A stretch of 64,000 nucleotides of DNA, taken from the NCBI GenBank assembly GCA_963796685.1, contig CAWCMR010000005.1, positions 361,513-425,512 of the forward strand, written 5' to 3'. The stretch's first letter is position 1. The number at the start of each line of letters is the position of its first letter. Under the pieces are notes generated by a model. That model ran no database searches, was not told the origin of the DNA, and saw only the letters and a program-made list of their open reading frames with translations. Shown one piece after another: positions 21,401 through 31,450 of the stretch. This stretch comes from an uncultured delta proteobacterium (GTDB lineage: Bacteria; Myxococcota_A; Polyangia; Fen-1088). The position numbers were made by a program, and so were the translations under genes.

Positions 21401-24400
21401 CGTCGTCCCCGGACGACGGCCCCATTGAAGCCTGGGCCGGCTCGACCGACCAGGGCGTCGGTGTGCCCGCTATCCGTCGTCCCCGGACGACGGCCCCATT
21501 GAAGCGAGCGTCACCGAGTCGTAGGCGGCGGCGAGAGTGATCTATCCGTCGTCCCCGGACGACGGCCCCATTGAAGCGCCAGGTGGCGCGCTCCCAGGTG
21601 GGCGTTCGTCGCAGCTATCCGTCGTCCCCGGACGACGGCCCCATTGAAGCAGCGTGGGCGTGTAGCTCGAGGATGCGGAGAAATCCACTATCCGTCGTCC
21701 CCGGACGACGGCCCCATTGAAGCGCGGTCATCTATGCCCACAAGTACGGGATGATGTTCCTCTATCCGTCGTCCCCGGACGACGGCCCCATTGAAGCAAC
21801 AATGACGAACACATTCGCCCCCGCACGTGTTCCTATCCGTCGTCCCCGGACGACGGCCCCATTGAAGCCTTTCTGTGGTGAGAGTTAGCGTCGGGGTAAC
21901 TTCCCTATCCGTCGTCCCCGGACGACGGCCCCATTGAAGCCATGGAGTACCTGACAACATGACCAAGATCGAAGACTATCCGTCGTCCCCGGACGACGGC
22001 CCCATTGAAGCAGGACTCTGTGAACGTCAACGCGGCCACGTCGACTACTATCCGTCGTCCCCGGACGACGGCCCCATTGAAGCATCAAGGCGTTGCAAGT
22101 CAAGCCGGTGTCACAATAATGACTATCCGTCGTCCCCGGACGACGGCCCCATTGAAGCCTATGGTGCCTGTTACGACAAAGGCGGAGCCTATTGGCTATC
22201 CGTCGTCCCCGGACGACGGCCCCATTGAAGCCTCGATCGTGGCGCTCACCGGCGCTAGCCCGCCACCTATCCGTCGTCCCCGGACGACGGCCCCATTGAA
22301 GCTCGGGTGAAGCAAGGGTTTCCGGCACGCGCCACGGAACTATCCGTCGTCCCCGGACGACGGCCCCATTGAAGCCAGCCTTTGCAATACGGCTATACGC
22401 TCAACGATCACCTATCCGTCGTCCCCGGACGACGGCCCCATTGAAGCATCGATTGCCTACCTCAGAAGGGATGGCCCGGGGACGCTATCCGTCGTCCCCG
22501 GACGACGGCCCCATTGAAGCGGGGGATCTTTCAAAGGCTTCACCGGGGGCTGTATCTGGCTATCCGTCGTCCCCGGACGACGGCCCCATTGAAGCATCGG
22601 CATTGGAACATCCCAACGGCGCGGATCCGGGTCTATCCGTCGTCCCCGGACGACGGCCCCATTGAAGCGCAAAGCCCGCGACGATGATGAGGCGCGGTTC
22701 AACCCTATCCGTCGTCCCCGGACGACGGCCCCATTGAAGCGTAGAGGGGCGGGAAGGCTTTGGTCATGTTCTCACCTATCCGTCGTCCCCGGACGACGGC
22801 CCCATTGAAGCGGTACATGCGGGGAAGTGCGTCCCTCACCACATATTGACTATCCGTCGTCCCCGGACGACGGCCCCATTGAAGCCCGAGCGAGCTGCTG
22901 CAGGCCGTTGCTGTTGTTCACTATCCGTCGTCCCCGGACGACGGCCCCATTGAAGCGCTTGGGGTGGTGCCGTTTGGTCGGCAAGCACGCCTGCTATCCG
23001 TCGTCCCCGGACGACGGCCCCATTGAAGCCATTTCACGAACAGGTCGTACGACACGCCGTCAAGCCTATCCGTCGTCCCCGGACGACGGCCCCATTGAAG
23101 CTTCTGACGGCGGTGGCGGCGGTGGCGGCGTAGGCGGCGGCTATCCGTCGTCCCCGGACGACGGCCCCATTGAAGCACAATGACGCTCGGTATCACGACA
23201 TGCGCCGAAGCCACCTATCCGTCGTCCCCGGACGACGGCCCCATTGAAGCTTGATGGCATCCGCGCGCATCTTCGCATCCGTCGCACTGCTATCCGTCGT
23301 CCCCGGACGACGGCCCCATTGAAGCTTGCGCTACGTTGCGCCCGTTTGACCACACCGTGCTTGGCTATCCGTCGTCCCCGGACGACGGCCCCATTGAAGC
23401 ATCCTACCAAAAGCGAGCGCTACCTGAAATCAGCGACAGCTATCCGTCGTCCCCGGACGACGGCCCCATTGAAGCCAATGGCCGTTTGGAGGCCTCTGTG
23501 CAATCGGCTTGGCTCTATCCGTCGTCCCCGGACGACGGCCCCATTGAAGCGTCTGTAGCTCTATGCTACATGTCTTGAGGGTCGTACCTATCCGTCGTCC
23601 CCGGACGACGGCCCCATTGAAGCTATTCGTGGTTACCGACCACGCGCGGATTCATTGTCAACTATCCGTCGTCCCCGGACGACGGCCCCATTGAAGCCTT
23701 ACGACATGCGCCTTTCCTGGCCGCGTAGCCACCTATCCGTCGTCCCCGGACGACGGCCCCATTGAAGCCATCAACCCGCTGCTGAGCTAGCAGGAGGAGT
23801 CCCATGCTATCCGTCGTCCCCGGACGACGGCCCCATTGAAGCCGCGCCTGCGAATGCGGCTCGCCGGATTTCTTCCCCTATCCGTCGTCCCCGGACGACG
23901 GCCCCATTGAAGCACAGAACTCGAACGAGAAGTCGGAACCGAAGAAGCCAGCTATCCGTCGTCCCCGGACGACGGCCCCATTGAAGCTCCGACCTGGCGG
24001 AACGACAAGCGGGGCAGGGGTAAACTATCCGTCGTCCCCGGACGACGGCCCCATTGAAGCCCTCGGCTATCGCAGAGCTGCTACATCCATCGACCCCCTA
24101 TCCGTCGTCCCCGGACGACGGCCCCATTGAAGCACCGTGGCCTGGACCCGCCTCGCCGCCACTGCGGACCTATCCGTCGTCCCCGGACGACGGCCCCATT
24201 GAAGCCGCGAGGCGGGTGCGCGGCTCGAAGCCTACGCGCGACTATCCGTCGTCCCCGGACGACGGCCCCATTGAAGCCGAAGTTTCCACGTCAGGATACC
24301 GGCGGGTTTCATCCTATCCGTCGTCCCCGGACGACGGCCCCATTGAAGCGTTGAGATCGCGCTTCGATAGCGGATGGCCACGATGAGCTATCCGTCGTCC

Positions 24401-25582
24401 CCGGACGACGGCCCCATTGAAGCTCTCTACATCATGGGCGGAGCGGCGCTCTTGGTTGTGCTATCCGTCGTCCCCGGACGACGGCCCCATTGAAGCACGC
24501 TCACGCTGACGGCGTCCAGACTGCGAGGGAGTGAACTATCCGTCGTCCCCGGACGACGGCCCCATTGAAGCTCGCCGACAACGACAACTCCGGAGGTGCA
24601 GCATGAGCTATCCGTCGTCCCCGGACGACGGCCCCATTGAAGCTGAGGGGCAGGAGGGCGTGGGGAGGCCGAAAGGCGCCTATCCGTCGTCCCCGGACGA
24701 CGGCCCCATTGAAGCGTGGGGTGCCGGGAGCCTTCGACCGTGCAGTCAGGGGCTATCCGTCGTCCCCGGACGACGGCCCCATTGAAGCGCCTTGAGGAGC
24801 TTCTTCAGCCGGTCGAGCCCGCCGCCTATCCGTCGTCCCCGGACGACGGCCCCATTGAAGCATGGTGATGTGGTCGAATTTGCGAGCCCGAGAAACAGCC
24901 TATCCGTCGTCCCCGGACGACGGCCCCATTGAAGCGATGGAATGGCGAGCTCGATTTCAGAGCGCTGGAGCACTATCCGTCGTCCCCGGACGACGGCCCC
25001 ATTGAAGCTTCGAAGCCCCACGGGGGCGTCACAGCGTGAAGCCAGCTATCCGTCGTCCCCGGACGACGGCCCCATTGAAGCAGCTCTGCTTCAGCGAAAG
25101 CTTGGTCGGCCAAACCACCTATCCGTCGTCCCCGGACGACGGCCCCATTGAAGCGAGTACGAGTCCCGCGGCCTCGGCCAGGGTCGCCAGCCTATCCGTC
25201 GTCCCCGGACGACGGCCCCATTGAAGCGGTTGCGGGCGCGGCCTGGTATCTGACCAACGCAGCTATCCGTCGTCCCCGGACGACGGCCCCATTGAAGCAC
25301 CCCAGGTCAGGCCCTATAGTACCCGTATAGTACCTATCCGTCGTCCCCGGACGACGGCCCCATTGAAGCGTGTTCACCCAGGCAAGGCGAGCCGTGCGCC
25401 CAATCTATCCGTCGTCCCCGGACGACGGCCCCATTGAAACCGAGGAAGCGTTCAGGCTCGCACTGACTCCGGAGCTATCCGTCGTCCCCGGACGACGGCC
25501 CCATTGAAGCGACATGACTGCGCGCTTTCTCCTCGGGCCGGCCAGGCTATCCGTCGTCCCCGGACGACGGCCCCATTGAAGC
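18494..25582 (+). CRISPR. CRISPR array, 36-bp repeat CTATCCGTCGTCCCCGGACGACGGCCCCATTGAAGC, 98 repeats and 97 spacers of about 34-40 bp (manual count)
   Basis: Regularly spaced identical repeats with an internal hairpin and 3' ATTGAAGC; repeat 96 (25405) ends GAAAC. Confidence 0.99.
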
Positions 25583-25688
25583 CCAACGCCGCGGAGGTAT
25601 CGAAACTTCACATAACTTTACGCGCCAGCAACACGTGCGCAGCAATCCCCCATCATCTTGAAAGCTTCACCCCGCCGAGGAGAGCTTC

Positions 25689-26144: not shown

Positions 26145-27035
26145 ATGTCCGAGCCCACCTCAGTCAGTCCCATCACCGGCGTCGCCGCGGGAGTTCCCTT
26201 TCTCGCTTTACCGCCTTCAGTCGGTGCCGGCATGCCCGAAGGCAGCCAGCATGCCGTGCCCATCATCGTGGCCTGGCACCTCATGGATCCACCTCGCAGC
26301 GAATCCGCCTTCGCCGCGGCCTTGCCGTTGAACGGTTTGAATGCGTGGCGACTGTACCTGGGGCTGCCCATGTGCGGCGCTCGCCTTCCCCCGGGCGGAC
26401 CCGAGGCGCTGATGCGGCTCTTCTATCAGGACGCCGTGCTCAAAGGATACCAGCCCATCGCGAATCAGGGCGCCGCGGAGCTCCCCGCCGTGCTCAGGGA
26501 GGCTCGAGAGCGGTTGGGACTGGAGGACGGCCCTGTCGCGCTTGTTGGCGGCTCGATGGGCTCGATCATCGCGGAGCTCGTGCTGACCGAGTCTGCTCCG
26601 GCCGCCGGCATCGAGGTGGCGGCGGCGGTGCTGATCAGCCCGGTTGCACAGCTCCGCCCGATGGTTGAGGCCATTGGTCGCCGTTACAACGTCACCTACC
26701 CGTGGTCCCCTGAAGCCATGCGCGTCGCCGAGCGGTTGGACTTCGTGGCACGCGTGGACGACATCGTGCGTGCCGGACAACCGGCCATTCGGCTAATCGT
26801 CGGGGCCGAAGACGACCGCGAGGGATTCATCGAGCCCGCACTGCGGTTGCAGTCCGCGCTGACCAGGCGCTACAGCGATCGATCGCGAGTCGATCTGGTC
26901 ATCATTCCGGGAATGGGGCACGCCTTGGCGGAAGAGCCGGGCATTGCGCCGGCACCGCAAACCGCGCATGCCGCCGTCGCGGACCAGCACACCATGGCGT
27001 GGTTTCTCGCGCACCTGCCAGGCTGCAAGCCATGA
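26145..27035 (+). CDS. Alpha/beta hydrolase
   Basis: GGSMG nucleophile elbow, GAEDD, GMGHAL; GGAGGAG RBS. Confidence 0.8.
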   Translation: MSEPTSVSPITGVAAGVPFLALPPSVGAGMPEGSQHAVPIIVAWHLMDPPRSESAFAAALPLNGLNAWRLYLGLPMCGARLPPGGPEALMRLFYQDAVLKGYQPIANQGAAELPAVLREARERLGLEDGPVALVGGSMGSIIAELVLTESAPAAGIEVAAAVLISPVAQLRPMVEAIGRRYNVTYPWSPEAMRVAERLDFVARVDDIVRAGQPAIRLIVGAEDDREGFIEPALRLQSALTRRYSDRSRVDLVIIPGMGHALAEEPGIAPAPQTAHAAVADQHTMAWFLAHLPGCKP

Positions 27036-27059
27036 GGCGTGGAGCGAGGAACGCTCCCG

Positions 27060-28130
27060 TTACACAGGAGCGGGCCTTTTCGACGTGACCGCCAGAAGGC
27101 AATGGGCGTTGTGGTGAAAGGTGCCGGTGGTGGCCCAGCATAGGCTTTGACAGCCGCCCCGACAGATTGGGCCGAAGGCGCAGTCGCGACAGCCGGGACC
27201 GAGGGCGGCGGGCGAGAAGGCGCGATTGTAGGCGAACGCGTGCGGATCGTCCCACAGCTCGGCGAGGCAGCGGGTTCTGAGGTTGCCCTCGTCGGCGGCG
27301 CCGGCGGGCAGCGAGAGACAGCCGCGCACGGTCCCGTCGCTGGTGATGCCGACGACCTGGATGCCGGCTGCGCAGCCGGTCCAGCAACGCTCTATCAGGG
27401 CCCGGCCGGTGCGCAGGCGAGGCTCGTGGCGGCTCATATACCCGATGTTGTCTGCTGCTTGCACGAAGAAGGGCGCCCGGGCTTGCAGGGCCAGCAGTTG
27501 GCTTTCGAGCTCCGGCAAAGCGCTCGGCGGCAGGCAGAAGGAGCCGCCGTGGCTGCCGGAGTCGCCGCGGCGGGCACGCCCGTGGGGCATGGTGAGCTGG
27601 AGTTGCCAGCCGGAGAAGCCATGGGCGATCAGGAGGTCGAGCGTATCGTCCAACCGGTGCAAGTTGGCGCTGTTGACTTGCGTGACGGCGCCGATACGCA
27701 TCCCGCGTTCGCGCAGGGCCTGGGCGCCCTTCAGGGTCCGCGCCAAGCCGTCCGATACGCCACGCAGACCGTCGTGCACGGCGGGCGGCCCGTCGATGGA
27801 GAAGGTCACGGCCGAGAACCCGCAAGCAATGAGCGTGTCGGCCTGGGCCGCCACGGACAGACCGTTGGTGATGAGCTCGAGCTGCATGCCGGCCTCGCGA
27901 ACGGCCCGCGCCAGGGTGGGCCAGTCGGGTCGCAACAGGGGCTCGCCGCCGGAGAAGGTCACGGATTGACAGCCGAGGCCCGCCAGCTCGCCGATCAGGG
28001 CCAGCCCCTCGGCCGTGTCGAGCTCGCGGGCCCGGGCTTTGCCGGCATCCGATCCGCAGTGCACGCAACGGGCGTCGCAGGCAAGGGTCAGCTCCCACAC
28101 GCAGATCCTGAGTGGCCAGTGGTCCATCAC
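27060..28130 (-). CDS. Radical SAM/SPASM enzyme 2
   Basis: WELTLACDARCVHC, SGGEP, ADNIGY, GCAAG...DGTVRGCLSL, CRDC...CRGGC...C. Confidence 0.92.
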   Translation of the reverse strand: MMDHWPLRICVWELTLACDARCVHCGSDAGKARARELDTAEGLALIGELAGLGCQSVTFSGGEPLLRPDWPTLARAVREAGMQLELITNGLSVAAQADTLIACGFSAVTFSIDGPPAVHDGLRGVSDGLARTLKGAQALRERGMRIGAVTQVNSANLHRLDDTLDLLIAHGFSGWQLQLTMPHGRARRGDSGSHGGSFCLPPSALPELESQLLALQARAPFFVQAADNIGYMSRHEPRLRTGRALIERCWTGCAAGIQVVGITSDGTVRGCLSLPAGAADEGNLRTRCLAELWDDPHAFAYNRAFSPAALGPGCRDCAFGPICRGGCQSLCWATTGTFHHNAHCLLAVTSKRPAPV

Positions 28131-29254
28131 GTACCGGTGGGTGGCGAGGTCGGGGCCCGGGCCGACGCGGAATTCCCGGCGCGCTGAATGCAGTAGGGAT
28201 TGTCGTAGATGGTTCCCGTCACCGCATAGGCCATGGTGGTGCAACCGGCACGACAAAGGCGCCTGTAGGGACAAGTCTTGCAGAAGCCTTCGAGCAGCCG
28301 TTCGTCCCAGCGGGTGTTGTAGGCGAAGCGCTCGGCCTCGCGCCAGATGGTGCCAAGCGGGGTCTGGCGAATGTTGCCCACGACGAACTCGCGCGGGTGC
28401 GACGGGCAACCCTTCACGTCGCCGTTCGAGCAAAAGGCGATCACCTGGCAGCCCGCCATACACCCCGCCCAGAACGACTCGACGCCCATCACCGACCCGC
28501 GCAGCGCCGGCTCGTGTCGACCGTAGTAGCCGATGTTGTCTGCCACCGCGATGCGCATGCGTCCGTCGCGGACCAGGCTTGCGAGCAGATCTTGCAAGCC
28601 CGAGATGCGCTCGGGCTCGACCAGGTATTGGTCGCGGTAGCTCAGCAAGCGCCCGAGCGGCATGCACAGTTGCACCTGCCACAGGTCCACGCCAAGCCCC
28701 ACCAGTTGCTCGTACATGCGACCGAGGTCGTCGATATTGCCCCGATGCACCTGCGTGATGACGGCCGTCTTCAGGGGCGATGCGGCCACCCGCCGGATCG
28801 CCGCCAGGACAGCGTCGTAGCTCGATGCCGACCCGTGCGCCGGCACCCGGATGCGATCGTGGACGCTGCGCTCGCCGTCCAGCGACAGCGAGACGCCCTT
28901 CATCCCGAGCCGCACCATCCGATCGATCACACTCGAGCTCAGGCGAAGGCCATTCGTGATGAGACCAACGTTCATCCCCAGCCCGATGAGCCGTTCGGCA
29001 AGGGTGGCCCAGTCCGAGCGGACCAGGGGCTCTCCCCCGGTCAGGAGCACTTCGAGGCAGCCGATCTCGGCCAGCTGCACCGCCAGGTCGAGCGCCTCCG
29101 AGGTGGTGAGCTCGTCGGCCGCGGCATGCCCCGAGGCCGACTCACAATGAATGCAGCGCAGATTGCAGGCCTCGGTGATCTCCCAGAAGCAGCTACGTGG
29201 AACACGCGGGAGCAGGGTTGGCGTGGCCTCGCCAGGCTCGCGGTGTGGATCCAT
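28127..29254 (-). CDS. Radical SAM/SPASM enzyme 1
   Basis: WEITEACNLRCIHC, TGGEP, ADNIGYYG, GCMAG...NGDVKGCPS, CKTC...CRAGC...NPYC. Confidence 0.93.
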   Translation of the reverse strand: MDPHREPGEATPTLLPRVPRSCFWEITEACNLRCIHCESASGHAAADELTTSEALDLAVQLAEIGCLEVLLTGGEPLVRSDWATLAERLIGLGMNVGLITNGLRLSSSVIDRMVRLGMKGVSLSLDGERSVHDRIRVPAHGSASSYDAVLAAIRRVAASPLKTAVITQVHRGNIDDLGRMYEQLVGLGVDLWQVQLCMPLGRLLSYRDQYLVEPERISGLQDLLASLVRDGRMRIAVADNIGYYGRHEPALRGSVMGVESFWAGCMAGCQVIAFCSNGDVKGCPSHPREFVVGNIRQTPLGTIWREAERFAYNTRWDERLLEGFCKTCPYRRLCRAGCTTMAYAVTGTIYDNPYCIQRAGNSASARAPTSPPTGT

Positions 29255-29268
29255 GGTTGGCGCGCCTG

Positions 29269-30351
29269 CTAGTCGGGAAACGAGACGCCCTTGTACACCG
29301 GGACGGCGCAGAGCATGTAGCCTGGGCCGTTCTTTACATACTGGAGATCGGTGGAGGTCGGGGCTGCGTTGAGCCCGTTGCGCGTCGTGATGCCGTTCGG
29401 CTGACAACACGAGGTCAGGTTCAGGAGCATCTGCGAGATCTCTTCCGGCGTCCCCGTGGCAAAGAGCTGCGTGAGGCTGGTCGTCCAATCCGTGGTCAGC
29501 GCGGCGAAGCACTGACACAGCCGGCTCTTCTGATCCGTCGAGAGGCTCGACTCGCCGATGGCTTGGTCGAGCTCGGTGGTCACGCTCTGGGTGCAGGCCG
29601 GCGCTGCGTCGGTGGAGGGCGAGCCGTCTGTGACGAGATCGACGCTCCCCATCGCGTCCACGGCCGTGTCGCGCGATTCGGGGGCATCCATGCCGCCATC
29701 CGCGCCGCCCATCCCTCCGGTGCCGCCCACGCCGCCCATCCCTCCGGCCCCCGCCACGCCGCCCATCCCTCCGGCCCCCGCCACGCCGCCCATCCCTCCG
29801 GTGCCGCCCGCGCCGCCCTTGCCTGTCGTACTACCACCGGCACCCGCGGCGCCGCCCGAGCCGCCCACCGTCGCATCGACAGCGACCGTTCCACCCGCGC
29901 CGCTCCCGCCGGTTCCCGTCGTGCCGCTGTGGTTCGAGTTGTCGCCGCACCCCGCGGCTGCCAGTCCGAGCAGCAAGAAGCCCCCCAGCACGGCCCCGGA
30001 CAGTTTGCGCGTGAAATCCCGTCGAGCCGGCCCGGCGCTGCTCCCCCCGACAAGCAGAGCATCCCGCAGCTCGTCCACCAGCTCGTCGGCCTTCCACGAG
30101 CTGAGCAGCTCGGCCTGGGCCGTCACCGGTCGGAGTGGTCGCTGCGAATCGACGGCGCTTGCGACGACATCGCGGAGCAGTCCCTTGAGGGGCTGCCAAA
30201 ATTCAGGATCGTTCCGTCGCCGTCGCAGCAGAGCGTAGAATTCGTCGTACGTCTCTTCCAACCCCGACCAAGGACGGAGGGCTGCGCCCTGGCCAGCCAG
30301 GAAGGTACGAACCCGCTGGGTGATGGTGGGGACTATGACAGGCGTATTCAT
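29269..30351 (-). CDS. Putative rSAM substrate: N-terminal domain, internal RR/lipobox signal, Gly-rich repeats, Cys-containing C-terminal domain
   Basis: RRDFTRKLSGAVLGGFLLLGLAAAGC; GAGGMGGV repeats; ends CAVPVYKGVSFPD 14 bp before rSAM 1; start may be 30369. Confidence 0.8.
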   Translation of the reverse strand: MNTPVIVPTITQRVRTFLAGQGAALRPWSGLEETYDEFYALLRRRRNDPEFWQPLKGLLRDVVASAVDSQRPLRPVTAQAELLSSWKADELVDELRDALLVGGSSAGPARRDFTRKLSGAVLGGFLLLGLAAAGCGDNSNHSGTTGTGGSGAGGTVAVDATVGGSGGAAGAGGSTTGKGGAGGTGGMGGVAGAGGMGGVAGAGGMGGVGGTGGMGGADGGMDAPESRDTAVDAMGSVDLVTDGSPSTDAAPACTQSVTTELDQAIGESSLSTDQKSRLCQCFAALTTDWTTSLTQLFATGTPEEISQMLLNLTSCCQPNGITTRNGLNAAPTSTDLQYVKNGPGYMLCAVPVYKGVSFPD

Positions 30352-30574
30352 GTCCACCAGCGTACGCATGGCGCGCTGCCGAGTCTACCAGCCTGTGCAA
30401 GGCACTGCCTGGCCGCTGTGATCCCAGCCACGACCCTGGTTGGCCAACGACAGCCGAGAGTCGCAACAATTCGCCGACCCCGACGTCGACCTCGATATCG
30501 CCCACCGCGATTGTCTTGGACTTACCCAGGAAAGGGGGCAGCCTTCTCCTATCAAATTGCAGGAGGCAATCACC

Positions 30575-30706
30575 ATGGGCGACAAATCACCGAAAGCGAA
30601 GAACAAGGCCAGGAAGCAAGACACTGCGGACAAGAATCAAAAGGCGTCGGCTGCTGCGGCGAAGATGTCGCCGTCACCGGTGTTTCCCGGAAAGAAGGCC
30701 CGGTAG
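30575..30706 (+). CDS. Small Lys/Ala-rich protein (43 aa)
   Basis: AGGAGG RBS; MGDKSPKAKNKARKQ... Confidence 0.6.
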   Translation: MGDKSPKAKNKARKQDTADKNQKASAAAAKMSPSPVFPGKKAR

Positions 30707-30787
30707 ACTCGGGTTTGGTGCTGCGCCCAAGCGACGGTGGTGTTAGGCTCTGCCGGCCGGAGAAACCACCTGGTCCAGAGTCGCACG

Positions 30788-31450
30788 GTGCATGACATCA
30801 TCTCCTTTGCCCTCGTCGCGTTCCCGTCGCTGGTCGTAATCGTCAACCCGGTGACGGTCACGTCGGTTTTCATCACCCTCACGGCCAACGCCACGCCGGA
30901 GGCGAAGCGAGCGATCATTCGGAAGACCACGCTTACCGCGTTCGTCGTCCTCATGGTCTTTGCCGTCTCCGGAACCCTCATCTTCAAGTTCTTCTCGATT
31001 ACCATCGGCGCCTTCCAAGTTGCCGGAGGCATCATCCTCTTCTCCGTCGCCATGGGAATGCTTCACGCGAGGACCTCGCGGACGAAGCAGACACCGGAGG
31101 AGATGGACGAAGCGATGACCCGTGATGACATCGCCGTCGTTCCGCTGGCGATCCCGATCGTCTCCGGTCCGGGTGCCATCACCACGGTCATTGTCCTTTC
31201 CGGCGAGACCCGCGCCATTCCCAACATGGCGATCCTCTTTCTCGCCATCGTCGTTGTCATGGCCATTGTCTTCGTGATGTTGCGGAACGCGGCCAGAATC
31301 CAGAGGTTCATGGGCCCTTCCGGCCTCAACATCACGACACGGCTGATGGGCCTGGTTCTCGCCGCCGTCGCCGTTCAGTTCGTCGTCCACGGCATCGAAA
31401 GCGTCCTGCCGGAGATCGTGTCGGCGATCCACACCGGACCGAAACCGTAG
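30788..31450 (+). CDS. marC: MarC family membrane protein
   Basis: IVNP, FQVAGGIILF, IAVVPLAIPIVSGPGAITTV, TRLMGLVLAAVAVQF. Confidence 0.92.
   Translation: MHDIISFALVAFPSLVVIVNPVTVTSVFITLTANATPEAKRAIIRKTTLTAFVVLMVFAVSGTLIFKFFSITIGAFQVAGGIILFSVAMGMLHARTSRTKQTPEEMDEAMTRDDIAVVPLAIPIVSGPGAITTVIVLSGETRAIPNMAILFLAIVVVMAIVFVMLRNAARIQRFMGPSGLNITTRLMGLVLAAVAVQFVVHGIESVLPEIVSAIHTGPKP

Follow-up and report, generated by a model that had tools for sequence, protein, structure and literature searches.

A window of 64,000 nt (the whole stretch of DNA analysed) from an uncultured delta proteobacterium of the myxobacteria (GTDB lineage Myxococcota_A, Polyangia, Fen-1088; GenBank assembly accession number GCA_963796685.1; contig CAWCMR010000005.1, coordinates 361513 to 425512) was found to carry a trio of minus-strand genes at window positions 27060 to 30369, in the order A, rSAM1, rSAM2. 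From their sequences, these genes probably constitute a self-contained maturation module, in which A would be a membrane-anchored, exported protein modified by two radical S-adenosylmethionine (SAM)/SPASM enzymes, rSAM1 and rSAM2, at a motif in its flexible C-terminal tail. A preliminary description of this DNA had named the upstream protein as the substrate, and this proposal is well supported by the invariance of the tail and by its co-occurrence with the enzymes; it is highly likely that the tail is what the enzymes act on. The three genes are located as follows.

29269–30369, minus strand: gene A, putative substrate protein of 366 aa, no Pfam or NCBIfam family
28127–29254, minus strand: rSAM1, radical SAM/SPASM enzyme of 375 aa, CX3CX2C at aa 30–37
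27060–28130, minus strand: rSAM2, radical SAM/SPASM paralogue of 356 aa from GTG, CX3CX2C at aa 18–25

A conserved motif at the C-terminus of A

The C-terminus of A reads ...QYVKNGPGYMLCAVPVYKGVSFPD, and the YKGVSF stretch (residues 359–364) was invariant in 28 of 28 sequences selected with the tail, in an alignment with a mean column identity of 46%. When distant members were added, Y359, K360, G361 and F364 were invariant in 27 rows at a mean column identity of 41%. The pattern Y-[K/R]-G-[V/I]-[S/A]-F was found at most nine residues from the C-terminus in nearly all relatives, whether these had been selected by the tail, by the N-terminal domain (N-domain) or by rSAM1, and was retained where A is only 30–35% identical. 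A query with residues 240–366 of A identified 27 proteins among 118 candidates, and a query with residues 1–125 identified 22, of which 13 were common to the C-terminal search and nine were new; the motif was present in nine of the nine new proteins, two to three residues from the end, as YKGVSF in seven and YRGVAF in two. The named sources of these relatives are metagenome-assembled genomes of Polyangia, Deltaproteobacteria or Myxococcales, and the A-type proteins are 250–430 aa long. Outside the domain cores and the membrane anchor, the tail motif provides the only invariant positions in A. The following variants were found in other genomes (G) and loci (L).

YKGVAF: G122, G137, G212 and G385
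YKGISF: G040
YRGVSF: L051
YKGAAF: G385, first copy
YLGVRF: G059, a more distant module with two rSAM-like genes downstream as well

Beyond the Phe of the most C-terminal copy there are two to eight further residues (a single one in G059, with YLGVRF), and a protein encoded at L057 carries two copies, 29 and 8 residues before the stop. Judged from these variants, the strict core is Y-x-G-x-x-F, with the first x nearly always K or R. A six-frame search of the 7.3 Mb genome (14.6 million residues) for YKG[VIL][SAT]F returned four matches, of which only that in A adjoins a stop codon. As the motif is invariant at 46% mean identity and has a lone near-stop copy genome-wide, its conservation and position are judged to lie beyond chance.

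The tail had been described as rich in tyrosine and as offering YKG rather than XYG. The latter holds, as A contains no YG dipeptide; it also lacks GDL, and the context of the motif is V-Y-K-G. Three tyrosines are indeed present, but only Tyr359 is invariant. Conservation of the motif beside homologues of the enzymes was seen in every complete case. A limited literature search with the motif strings YKGVSF, YKGVAF and PYMAPD returned nothing relevant, and a similarly limited search for radical SAM, SPASM, lipoprotein and precursor found no report of such a system by title or abstract.

Association of A with paired radical SAM enzymes

Loci selected with A from genome contigs had the order A, rSAM1, rSAM2 in four of four cases. 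Sixteen loci were selected from metagenomes, of which four end too early and 12 are informative (at least 300 nt after A); an rSAM1 orthologue lies directly after A in 11 of these 12, and rSAM2 is also present in five of the six loci that are long enough. These counts show the co-occurrence of the motif with paired enzymes for which a check had been proposed earlier. As rSAM1 is always next to A when any enzyme is, we infer that rSAM1 is the core, obligatory partner and rSAM2 the usual second enzyme.

A search of 401 genomes of the phylum with rSAM1 matched seven at E ≤1e-90, the source genome included. In five of the six other genomes, the gene directly upstream is an A homologue and another rSAM gene lies downstream, and in the sixth (44% identity), where the contig ends, no A was seen. 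The six strongest matches to A among the 401 genomes (E 1e-43 or better) fell in exactly the six genomes with an rSAM1 of at least 50% identity.

Tandem A genes are present in L018/L043, and L069 (G385:C63:15500–25500) has three tandem A genes, with tails LYKGAAFRP, AYKGVAFPEDWER and AYKGVAFPENWGR, and after these two paralogues of rSAM1 and a single rSAM2. In these sequences, the tandem and repeated copies of the motif look precursor-like. The module shares with RiPP systems (peptides made on the ribosome and modified after translation) a precursor beside a maturase, a core motif that is conserved and more than one copy of the precursor or core; no conserved dedicated leader peptidase or exporter was found among the seven flanking open reading frames (ORFs) and four related genome loci.

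Organisation of the module

The 14 nt spacer between A and rSAM1 (29255–29268) and the GTGA at 28127–28130, in which the rSAM1 stop and the rSAM2 start overlap by 4 nt, confirm the tightly coupled minus-strand operon first described. An alternative ATG start for rSAM2, one codon downstream, gives TGATG and a 1 nt overlap. Because homologues of A begin at a Met aligned with residue 7, a nearly invariant position, A probably starts at the ATG at position 30351, six codons into the longest ORF, which would give a protein of 360 aa. A scan of 26800–30800 found no promoter-like or terminator-like sites.

None of the seven flanking ORFs in the window recurs in the four related genome loci, and hence the module has no conserved neighbour that encodes a RiPP recognition element (RRE), a protease or a transporter, in line with what had been noted for the window itself. 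The module thus appears to consist of three genes and nothing more. Those flanking ORFs that were tested against Pfam gave matches to DUF4405, MarC, a GT4 glycosyltransferase and a methyltransferase, and a weak match to an alpha/beta hydrolase. A clustered regularly interspaced short palindromic repeat (CRISPR) array, in which a 36 nt repeat (CTATCCGTCGTCCCCGGACGACGGCCCCATTGAAGC) occurs at least 29 times at a spacing of 70–75 nt, is located ~1.5 kb beyond rSAM2 (window coordinates 23512–25585).

Domains and topology of A

The following regions were distinguished in A.

30004–30369, minus strand: N-terminal helical domain, predicted cytoplasmic (aa 1–122)
29947–30003, minus strand: membrane helix ending in a lipobox (…GGFLLLGLAAAGC, Cys141), model helix 125–139
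29614–29946, minus strand: Gly-rich, length-variable disordered linker (aa 142–252)
29296–29613, minus strand: small helical C-terminal domain (C-domain) with conserved cysteines (aa 253–358)
29272–29295, minus strand: tail, Y359-K-G-V-S-F364-P-D366, the proposed modification site, predicted disordered

An AlphaFold2 model built with a 27-row alignment (mean predicted local distance difference test, pLDDT, 70) has helices over residues 16–122 in the N-domain (block pLDDT mostly 80–94), a linker with pLDDT below 50 over residues 143–252, and a C-domain with helices from residue 265, in which the 10-residue blocks covering 261–350 are at pLDDT ~86–95. Beside this confident helical domain, the tail (residues 359–366) is predicted to be disordered. 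In the 27 rows, W58, P60, L65 and L89 of the N-domain are invariant, as are L132, A137 and C141 of the anchor (27/27), and C259, C287, C321, C322 and C354 of the C-domain are nearly invariant, not all of them being found in the most distant members. The Gly-rich linker is missing from the ~250 aa orthologues of G122, G137, G212, G040 and G385.

The hydrophobic stretch LLLGLAAAG-C141 matches a lipobox, and the earlier term 'lipoprotein-like' can be kept on that account. However, ~120 folded residues precede the lipobox in place of the short charged n-region of lipoproteins, and A is better described as lipoprotein-like with what appears to be an unusually long folded region ahead of the signal. 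Lipidation at Cys141, with release of the N-domain by signal peptidase II, is plausible. Arg/Lys residues are found before the hydrophobic helix and none after it, and as they flank only its N-terminal side, the N-terminus of A is predicted to be cytoplasmic and the C-terminus to be outside.

Neither Pfam nor NCBIfam has a family for A, and the N- and C-domains searched separately at Pfam E ≤10 also gave nothing. A Nif11/NHLP-type leader was not detected in A using NCBIfam and Pfam. Foldseek comparison of the model with the PDB returned 0 matches at E ≤0.001, both domains looking like generic helical bundles, and an ESM Atlas search with the N-domain gave a best score of 0.87, to tiny Tat-signal clusters, below the level taken as a lead. 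Tat export of A was considered, as R-R-D-F precedes the helix here, but most homologues have R-T/S/V/A-D-F and the idea was dropped.

The radical SAM/SPASM enzymes

Pfam Radical_SAM and SPASM domains were identified in both rSAM1 and rSAM2, and all of the motifs quoted for them in the preliminary description were found in both, together with the full set of SPASM cysteines. The cluster-binding region is WEITEACNLRCIHC in rSAM1 and WELTLACDARCVHC in rSAM2, ADNIGY is common to both, and WAGCMAG and NGDVKGCPS in rSAM1 correspond to WTGCAAG and DGTVRGCLS in rSAM2. Every rSAM1 row (13 of 13, from 11 distinct genes) and every rSAM2 row (10 of 10) retains the CX3CX2C motif and all seven SPASM cysteines, and both lineages are therefore probably active. 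Only 24 (rSAM1) and 12 (rSAM2) residues lie ahead of the first cluster motif, leaving no room for an RRE domain in either enzyme. The two enzymes are 38% identical to one another, whereas orthologues of each share 50–79% identity. Scores against NCBIfam models were as follows.

TIGR04103 (nif11-class maturase 3, PlpX type): rSAM1 244.6 bits, rSAM2 211 bits, cut-off 725
TIGR03913 (GDL-motif maturase): rSAM1 239 bits, rSAM2 198.8 bits, cut-off 591.75
TIGR04545 (AhbD): rSAM1 155 bits, rSAM2 133 bits, cut-off 500
TIGR04133 (rSAM_w_lipo): rSAM1 151.4 bits, rSAM2 123.8 bits, cut-off 425
TIGR03962 (mycofactocin): rSAM1 131 bits, rSAM2 97 bits, cut-off 265
TIGR02109 (PqqE): rSAM1 107 bits, rSAM2 78 bits, cut-off 381.35

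The NirJ model gave 121 bits for rSAM1 and 115 bits for rSAM2, and models of cross-linking enzymes were matched weakly (WgkB 88 bits, DynA 70 bits). By these scores, rSAM1 and rSAM2 are more like the splicease/GDL group than like the cofactor enzymes and are members of no curated family. A grouping with Ahb, NirJ or PqqE, which would have spoken against the first interpretation, was not seen, the TIGR04103 and TIGR03913 scores being above those of the AhbD, NirJ and PqqE models. The designation 'splicease-like' is apt as far as the best-scoring models go, but the scores are far below the cut-offs and both enzymes fall outside the TIGR04103/TIGR03913-like clade in the tree described below.

At E ≤1e-20, 463 relatives of rSAM1 were found, and when 1.84 billion representatives were scanned with rSAM1, 476 proteins matched at E ≤1e-30. 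Of the best 150 relatives, 105 were checked against NCBIfam, short fragments and the 33 lowest-ranked being left out. P0249 was the sole one of these 105 to pass a cut-off (TIGR03913, 771 bits), and eight further relatives scored 375–532 bits against the TIGR04103/TIGR03913 models. A quick IQ-TREE tree (LG+G4, SH-aLRT) of 91 rows was made from the two window enzymes, 25 locus sequences and 64 representatives hand-picked from the 150. The rSAM1 orthologues formed one clade (19 rows, SH-aLRT 100), the rSAM2 orthologues their own (10 rows, SH-aLRT 98) and three other paralogues from the same genome a third (SH-aLRT 99). The TIGR03913/TIGR04103-like clade (nine rows, SH-aLRT 100, stem length 0.51) excludes rSAM1 and rSAM2, and all four clades are nested in an unresolved 53-row group. 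In this tree, which contains no experimentally proven splicease sequences, rSAM1 and rSAM2 appear to be old, separate lineages beside the canonical clade.

A sequence search of the PDB with rSAM1 gave SkfB (69 bits) and PqqE (56 bits) as the best matches, with no splicease structure among the PDB entries. A complex prediction with rSAM1, residues 253–366 of A, three 4Fe-4S clusters and SAM scored 0.10 (mark 0.32) and was counted neither way. In the 731 aa protein P0154 from the representative library, two complete rSAM/SPASM units of this superclade are naturally fused, each of them 33–35% identical to rSAM1 and rSAM2; the fusion is a hint that tandem pairs may work together and, at that identity, not evidence of a heterodimer. 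The source genome also encodes a 206 aa ORF (C12:50786–51406; L006) that matches only the C-terminal (SPASM) half of the enzymes, with 35% identity to residues 158–358 of rSAM1, and is truncated or a remnant.

Proposed maturation of A

Radical SAM enzymes need reduced Fe-S clusters and SAM and so act in the cytoplasm, and the tail of A would therefore be modified before the C-terminal part of the protein crosses the membrane. In the proposed module, SAM would be cleaved at the CX3CX2C cluster of each enzyme to give a 5'-deoxyadenosyl radical, each enzyme also holding two auxiliary SPASM clusters, and the two cytoplasmic enzymes would act on the Y-[K/R]-G-[V/I]-[S/A]-F motif in the unfolded tail before Sec export of the C-terminal part. 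As A is predicted to be membrane-anchored, probably lipidated and exported, the product would be a modified cell-envelope protein and not a released peptide. In sulfatase maturation by the anaerobic sulfatase-maturating enzyme (anSME), and in that of quinohemoprotein amine dehydrogenase by QhpD, a cytoplasmic rSAM/SPASM enzyme likewise modifies a short motif of a whole protein, which is then exported. However, there is no family-level sequence relation to these enzymes (the anSME model gave 54 bits for a paralogue), the target motif is different, and A has no known catalytic role.

Several observations weigh against this interpretation. By the predicted topology, the tail ends up outside the cytoplasm, and modification before export is assumed. 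The lipobox Cys is missing in the homologue P0306. An aminotransferase class-V gene, not an rSAM gene, is downstream of A in L053, and in L049 rSAM1 is followed by a sulfatase-family gene with no rSAM2. Three motif-bearing A paralogues have no rSAM gene within ~4 kb, though their genomes hold the module elsewhere, which fits modification in trans. As the loci come from kin genomes and are not independent, the counts given above overstate independence, and L018 and L043/L044 look like one sequence from two collections. The motif, with Y-K-G in a protein that lacks YG, does not match the X-Y-G of spliceases, and both enzymes are, by their scores and tree position, far under the TIGR04103/TIGR03913 cut-offs and outside that clade.

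The N-domain and anchor scaffold also appears not to be specific to rSAM maturation, because it occurs with unrelated ...DDDDH tails, mostly without rSAM neighbours. In a sister subfamily, the N-domain, anchor and lipobox of A are combined with acidic tails ending ...DDDDH or ...DWDDH (L062, L063, L065–L068); rSAM-like genes are nearby in only two of these six loci (L063 and L068), and in L067 both copies are beside Ser/Thr protein kinase genes.

Possible chemistry and alternative explanations

According to published accounts, spliceases excise a tyramine equivalent (135.06 Da, C8H9NO) at XYG, and type II spliceases work without a Y protein and with a leader helix as activator (PMC11414181, PMC11626197, PMC9811515, PMC11002830). 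Some spliceases are reported to need no separate RRE protein (PMC11414181, PMC11626197), and the enzymes can modify tags at protein termini (PMC11414181).

The chemistry favoured here, though only tentatively, is a tyrosine-directed, splicease-type backbone reaction at Tyr359 by one enzyme, with a radical step by the other at Phe364 or at the residue after Tyr. Splicease-type chemistry is suggested by the nearest models, by the invariant Tyr with a nearby Gly and by the XYG neighbours of a paralogue. As in the spliceotide systems (PlpX/PlpA, RhaX/RhaA), rSAM and full SPASM domains are present, TIGR04103 and TIGR03913 being the best-scoring models, the target contains Tyr with a nearby Gly, and a paralogue in this genome adjoins an XYG-repeat protein; some of those systems are also binary and lack a separate RRE protein (PMC11414181). 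However, rSAM1 and rSAM2 score about one third of the TIGR04103 cut-off and are outside the TIGR04103/TIGR03913-like clade, the target is Y-K-G-x-x-F and not X-Y-G, the putative substrate is an anchored protein of 250–430 aa with no Nif11/NHLP-type leader detected, and there are two enzymes. The GDL-motif maturase TIGR03913 is the second-best model for rSAM1 and rSAM2 and the best for three other paralogues, but the 239 and 198.8 bits compare with a cut-off of 591.75, A has no GDL, and the true member P0249 is in another clade. TIGR04133, by its name an rSAM/SPASM family tied to a lipoprotein, is the fourth-ranked model, with both scores (151.4 and 123.8 bits) below the cut-off of 425.

That the same enzymes and substrate yield C-C or C-O cross-links instead of splicing, one link per enzyme, is likewise a tentative possibility. 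Residue 360 (K, R or L) could, for instance, be joined through its beta-carbon to the ring of Phe364 (i to i+4), or a ring could involve Tyr359. Cross-linking is the commonest chemistry among peptide-modifying rSAM/SPASM enzymes, and the Lys-Trp link of streptide, in K-G-D-G-W, has the same spacing as residues 360–364. Such links would be consistent with the presence of two enzymes, with a motif in which both aromatic residues are invariant, five positions apart and separated by an equally invariant Gly, and with the weak matches to WgkB and DynA. The variation of residue 360 (K/R/L) while Y, G and F are fixed fits a role of its backbone or beta-carbon rather than of an amine. The best-scoring models, however, are of splicease/GDL type and not cross-linkers. 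A ring from Phe364 to a downstream residue was rejected, since only one residue comes after Phe in L064 and the positions beyond Phe are free to vary. A thioether to a conserved Cys was also rejected as the universal reaction, as distant motif-bearing members keep only two C-domain cysteines. The remaining probability for the chemistry falls to other radical reactions.

It is rather unlikely that A is only a partner of the enzymes, i.e. a membrane-anchored scaffold, regulator or carrier, with another protein, a peptide or a small molecule or cofactor as the substrate. The occurrence of the N-domain/anchor scaffold with other tails, beside protein kinase genes and without rSAMs, the predicted position of the tail outside the cytoplasm and the single A locus with no downstream rSAM are all in keeping with such a role. 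However, apart from the domain cores and the anchor, A is invariant only in its tail motif, and the tandem and repeated copies of this motif behave like precursor cores. Furthermore, the 14 nt gap and 4 nt overlap leave no space for a hidden small gene, none of the seven flanking ORFs is conserved, and the cofactor-type models are clearly below the peptide-maturase models.

Short conserved aromatic C-terminal motifs can serve as envelope recognition signals, but it is very improbable that the tail has no connection with the rSAMs and is read instead by an envelope protease, chaperone or insertion machine as a signal for recognition or sorting, as sorting tags mark many proteins whereas a lone near-terminal copy is found in the 7.3 Mb genome, the motif tracks rSAM genes across distant lineages, and with up to 29 residues following it and duplication possible it need not be a free C-terminus.

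Related enzymes and their neighbours in Myxococcota

The three other paralogues in the source genome are 42–44% identical to rSAM1, with TIGR03913 as their best model (~260 bits), and no protein in this genome matches TIGR03913 above the cut-off. The paralogue at C25:842337–844148 (L003:802–2613; 41–43% identity) lies after a lipoprotein-like ORF of 200 aa, in which a short N-terminal helix and a lipobox are accompanied by a Gly-rich stretch containing LYG, VYG and VYG; this ORF looks like a canonical XYG splicease substrate. Another paralogue follows a lipoprotein-like ORF without YG.

Orthologues of the L003 paralogue were found in 13 of the 401 genomes, and at five of the 12 loci in other genomes (L029, L030, L031, L032 and L033) an upstream lipoprotein-like ORF contains P-x-Y-M-A-P-D repeats. 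A sixth locus, L036, has Y-[M/A/G]-[A/G/V]-P repeats, and each of the six has four to eight repeats. Two of the P-x-Y-M-A-P-D ORFs end in AYKAPS or PYRTPS; the remaining loci showed nothing comparable or are cut. These lipoprotein-like ORFs look like an undescribed type of tyrosine-repeat precursor, and tyrosine appears to be the constant feature of the neighbours across the superclade. As related enzymes adjoin lipoprotein-like proteins with XYG or PYMAPD repeats, the class is probably broader than the YKG-tail module.

According to a review (PMC10849128), a 2022 survey mined by the frequency of YG motifs, with 3418 candidates, 189 genera and 27 confirmed pairs. Mining of that kind would not have picked up the YKG-tail type, whereas myxobacterial lipoprotein precursors of XYG type may already be in the survey. 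At L020:5354–5878, directly upstream of a divergent A, a 174 aa lipoprotein ORF with FYG, AYG and VYG repeats and no Pfam family was found, and the enzyme pair there could have this protein as a further substrate.

A wider reading, in which the module represents a new class of envelope lipoproteins that are made on the ribosome and modified by radical SAM enzymes, is doubtful. The cytoplasmic N-domain ahead of the lipoprotein signal would then be a docking or activating 'leader', with signal peptidase II doubling as leader peptidase, and Y-K-G-x-x-F would be converted to an undescribed structure, such as a ketoamide at a non-XYG site or a bicyclic Tyr/Phe cross-link. The cell surface would thereby display a flexibly tethered warhead, reactive or rigid, e.g. 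a tethered protease inhibitor. Together with the XYG- and PYMAPD-repeat proteins, such proteins would reveal that Myxococcota have a wide and unrecognised family of systems for the maturation of lipoproteins with tyrosine motifs. The idea of the N-domain as a dedicated rSAM leader is weakened by the occurrence of the scaffold with ...DDDDH tails away from rSAM genes.

Significance

Radical SAM/SPASM maturases are a main source of new peptide chemistry, and spliceases have already been used to place beta-amino acids and ketoamide handles in proteins. The module described here offers a compact, invariant six-residue tag at a protein C-terminus and two dedicated enzymes with no accessory protein, and the motif is unlike any target named in the literature covered by our limited search. 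The YKG-tail module is therefore put forward, on the basis of sequence comparison, as a good candidate source of new protein chemistry. Should the tail be modified, the reaction would be either a new chemistry or a known chemistry directed by a new short recognition tag, and the product would be a rare natural product that is a whole exported, anchored protein and not a released peptide. The module also suggests that Myxococcota hold a broader range of lipoprotein-like substrates with tyrosine motifs, most of which YG-based mining would miss.

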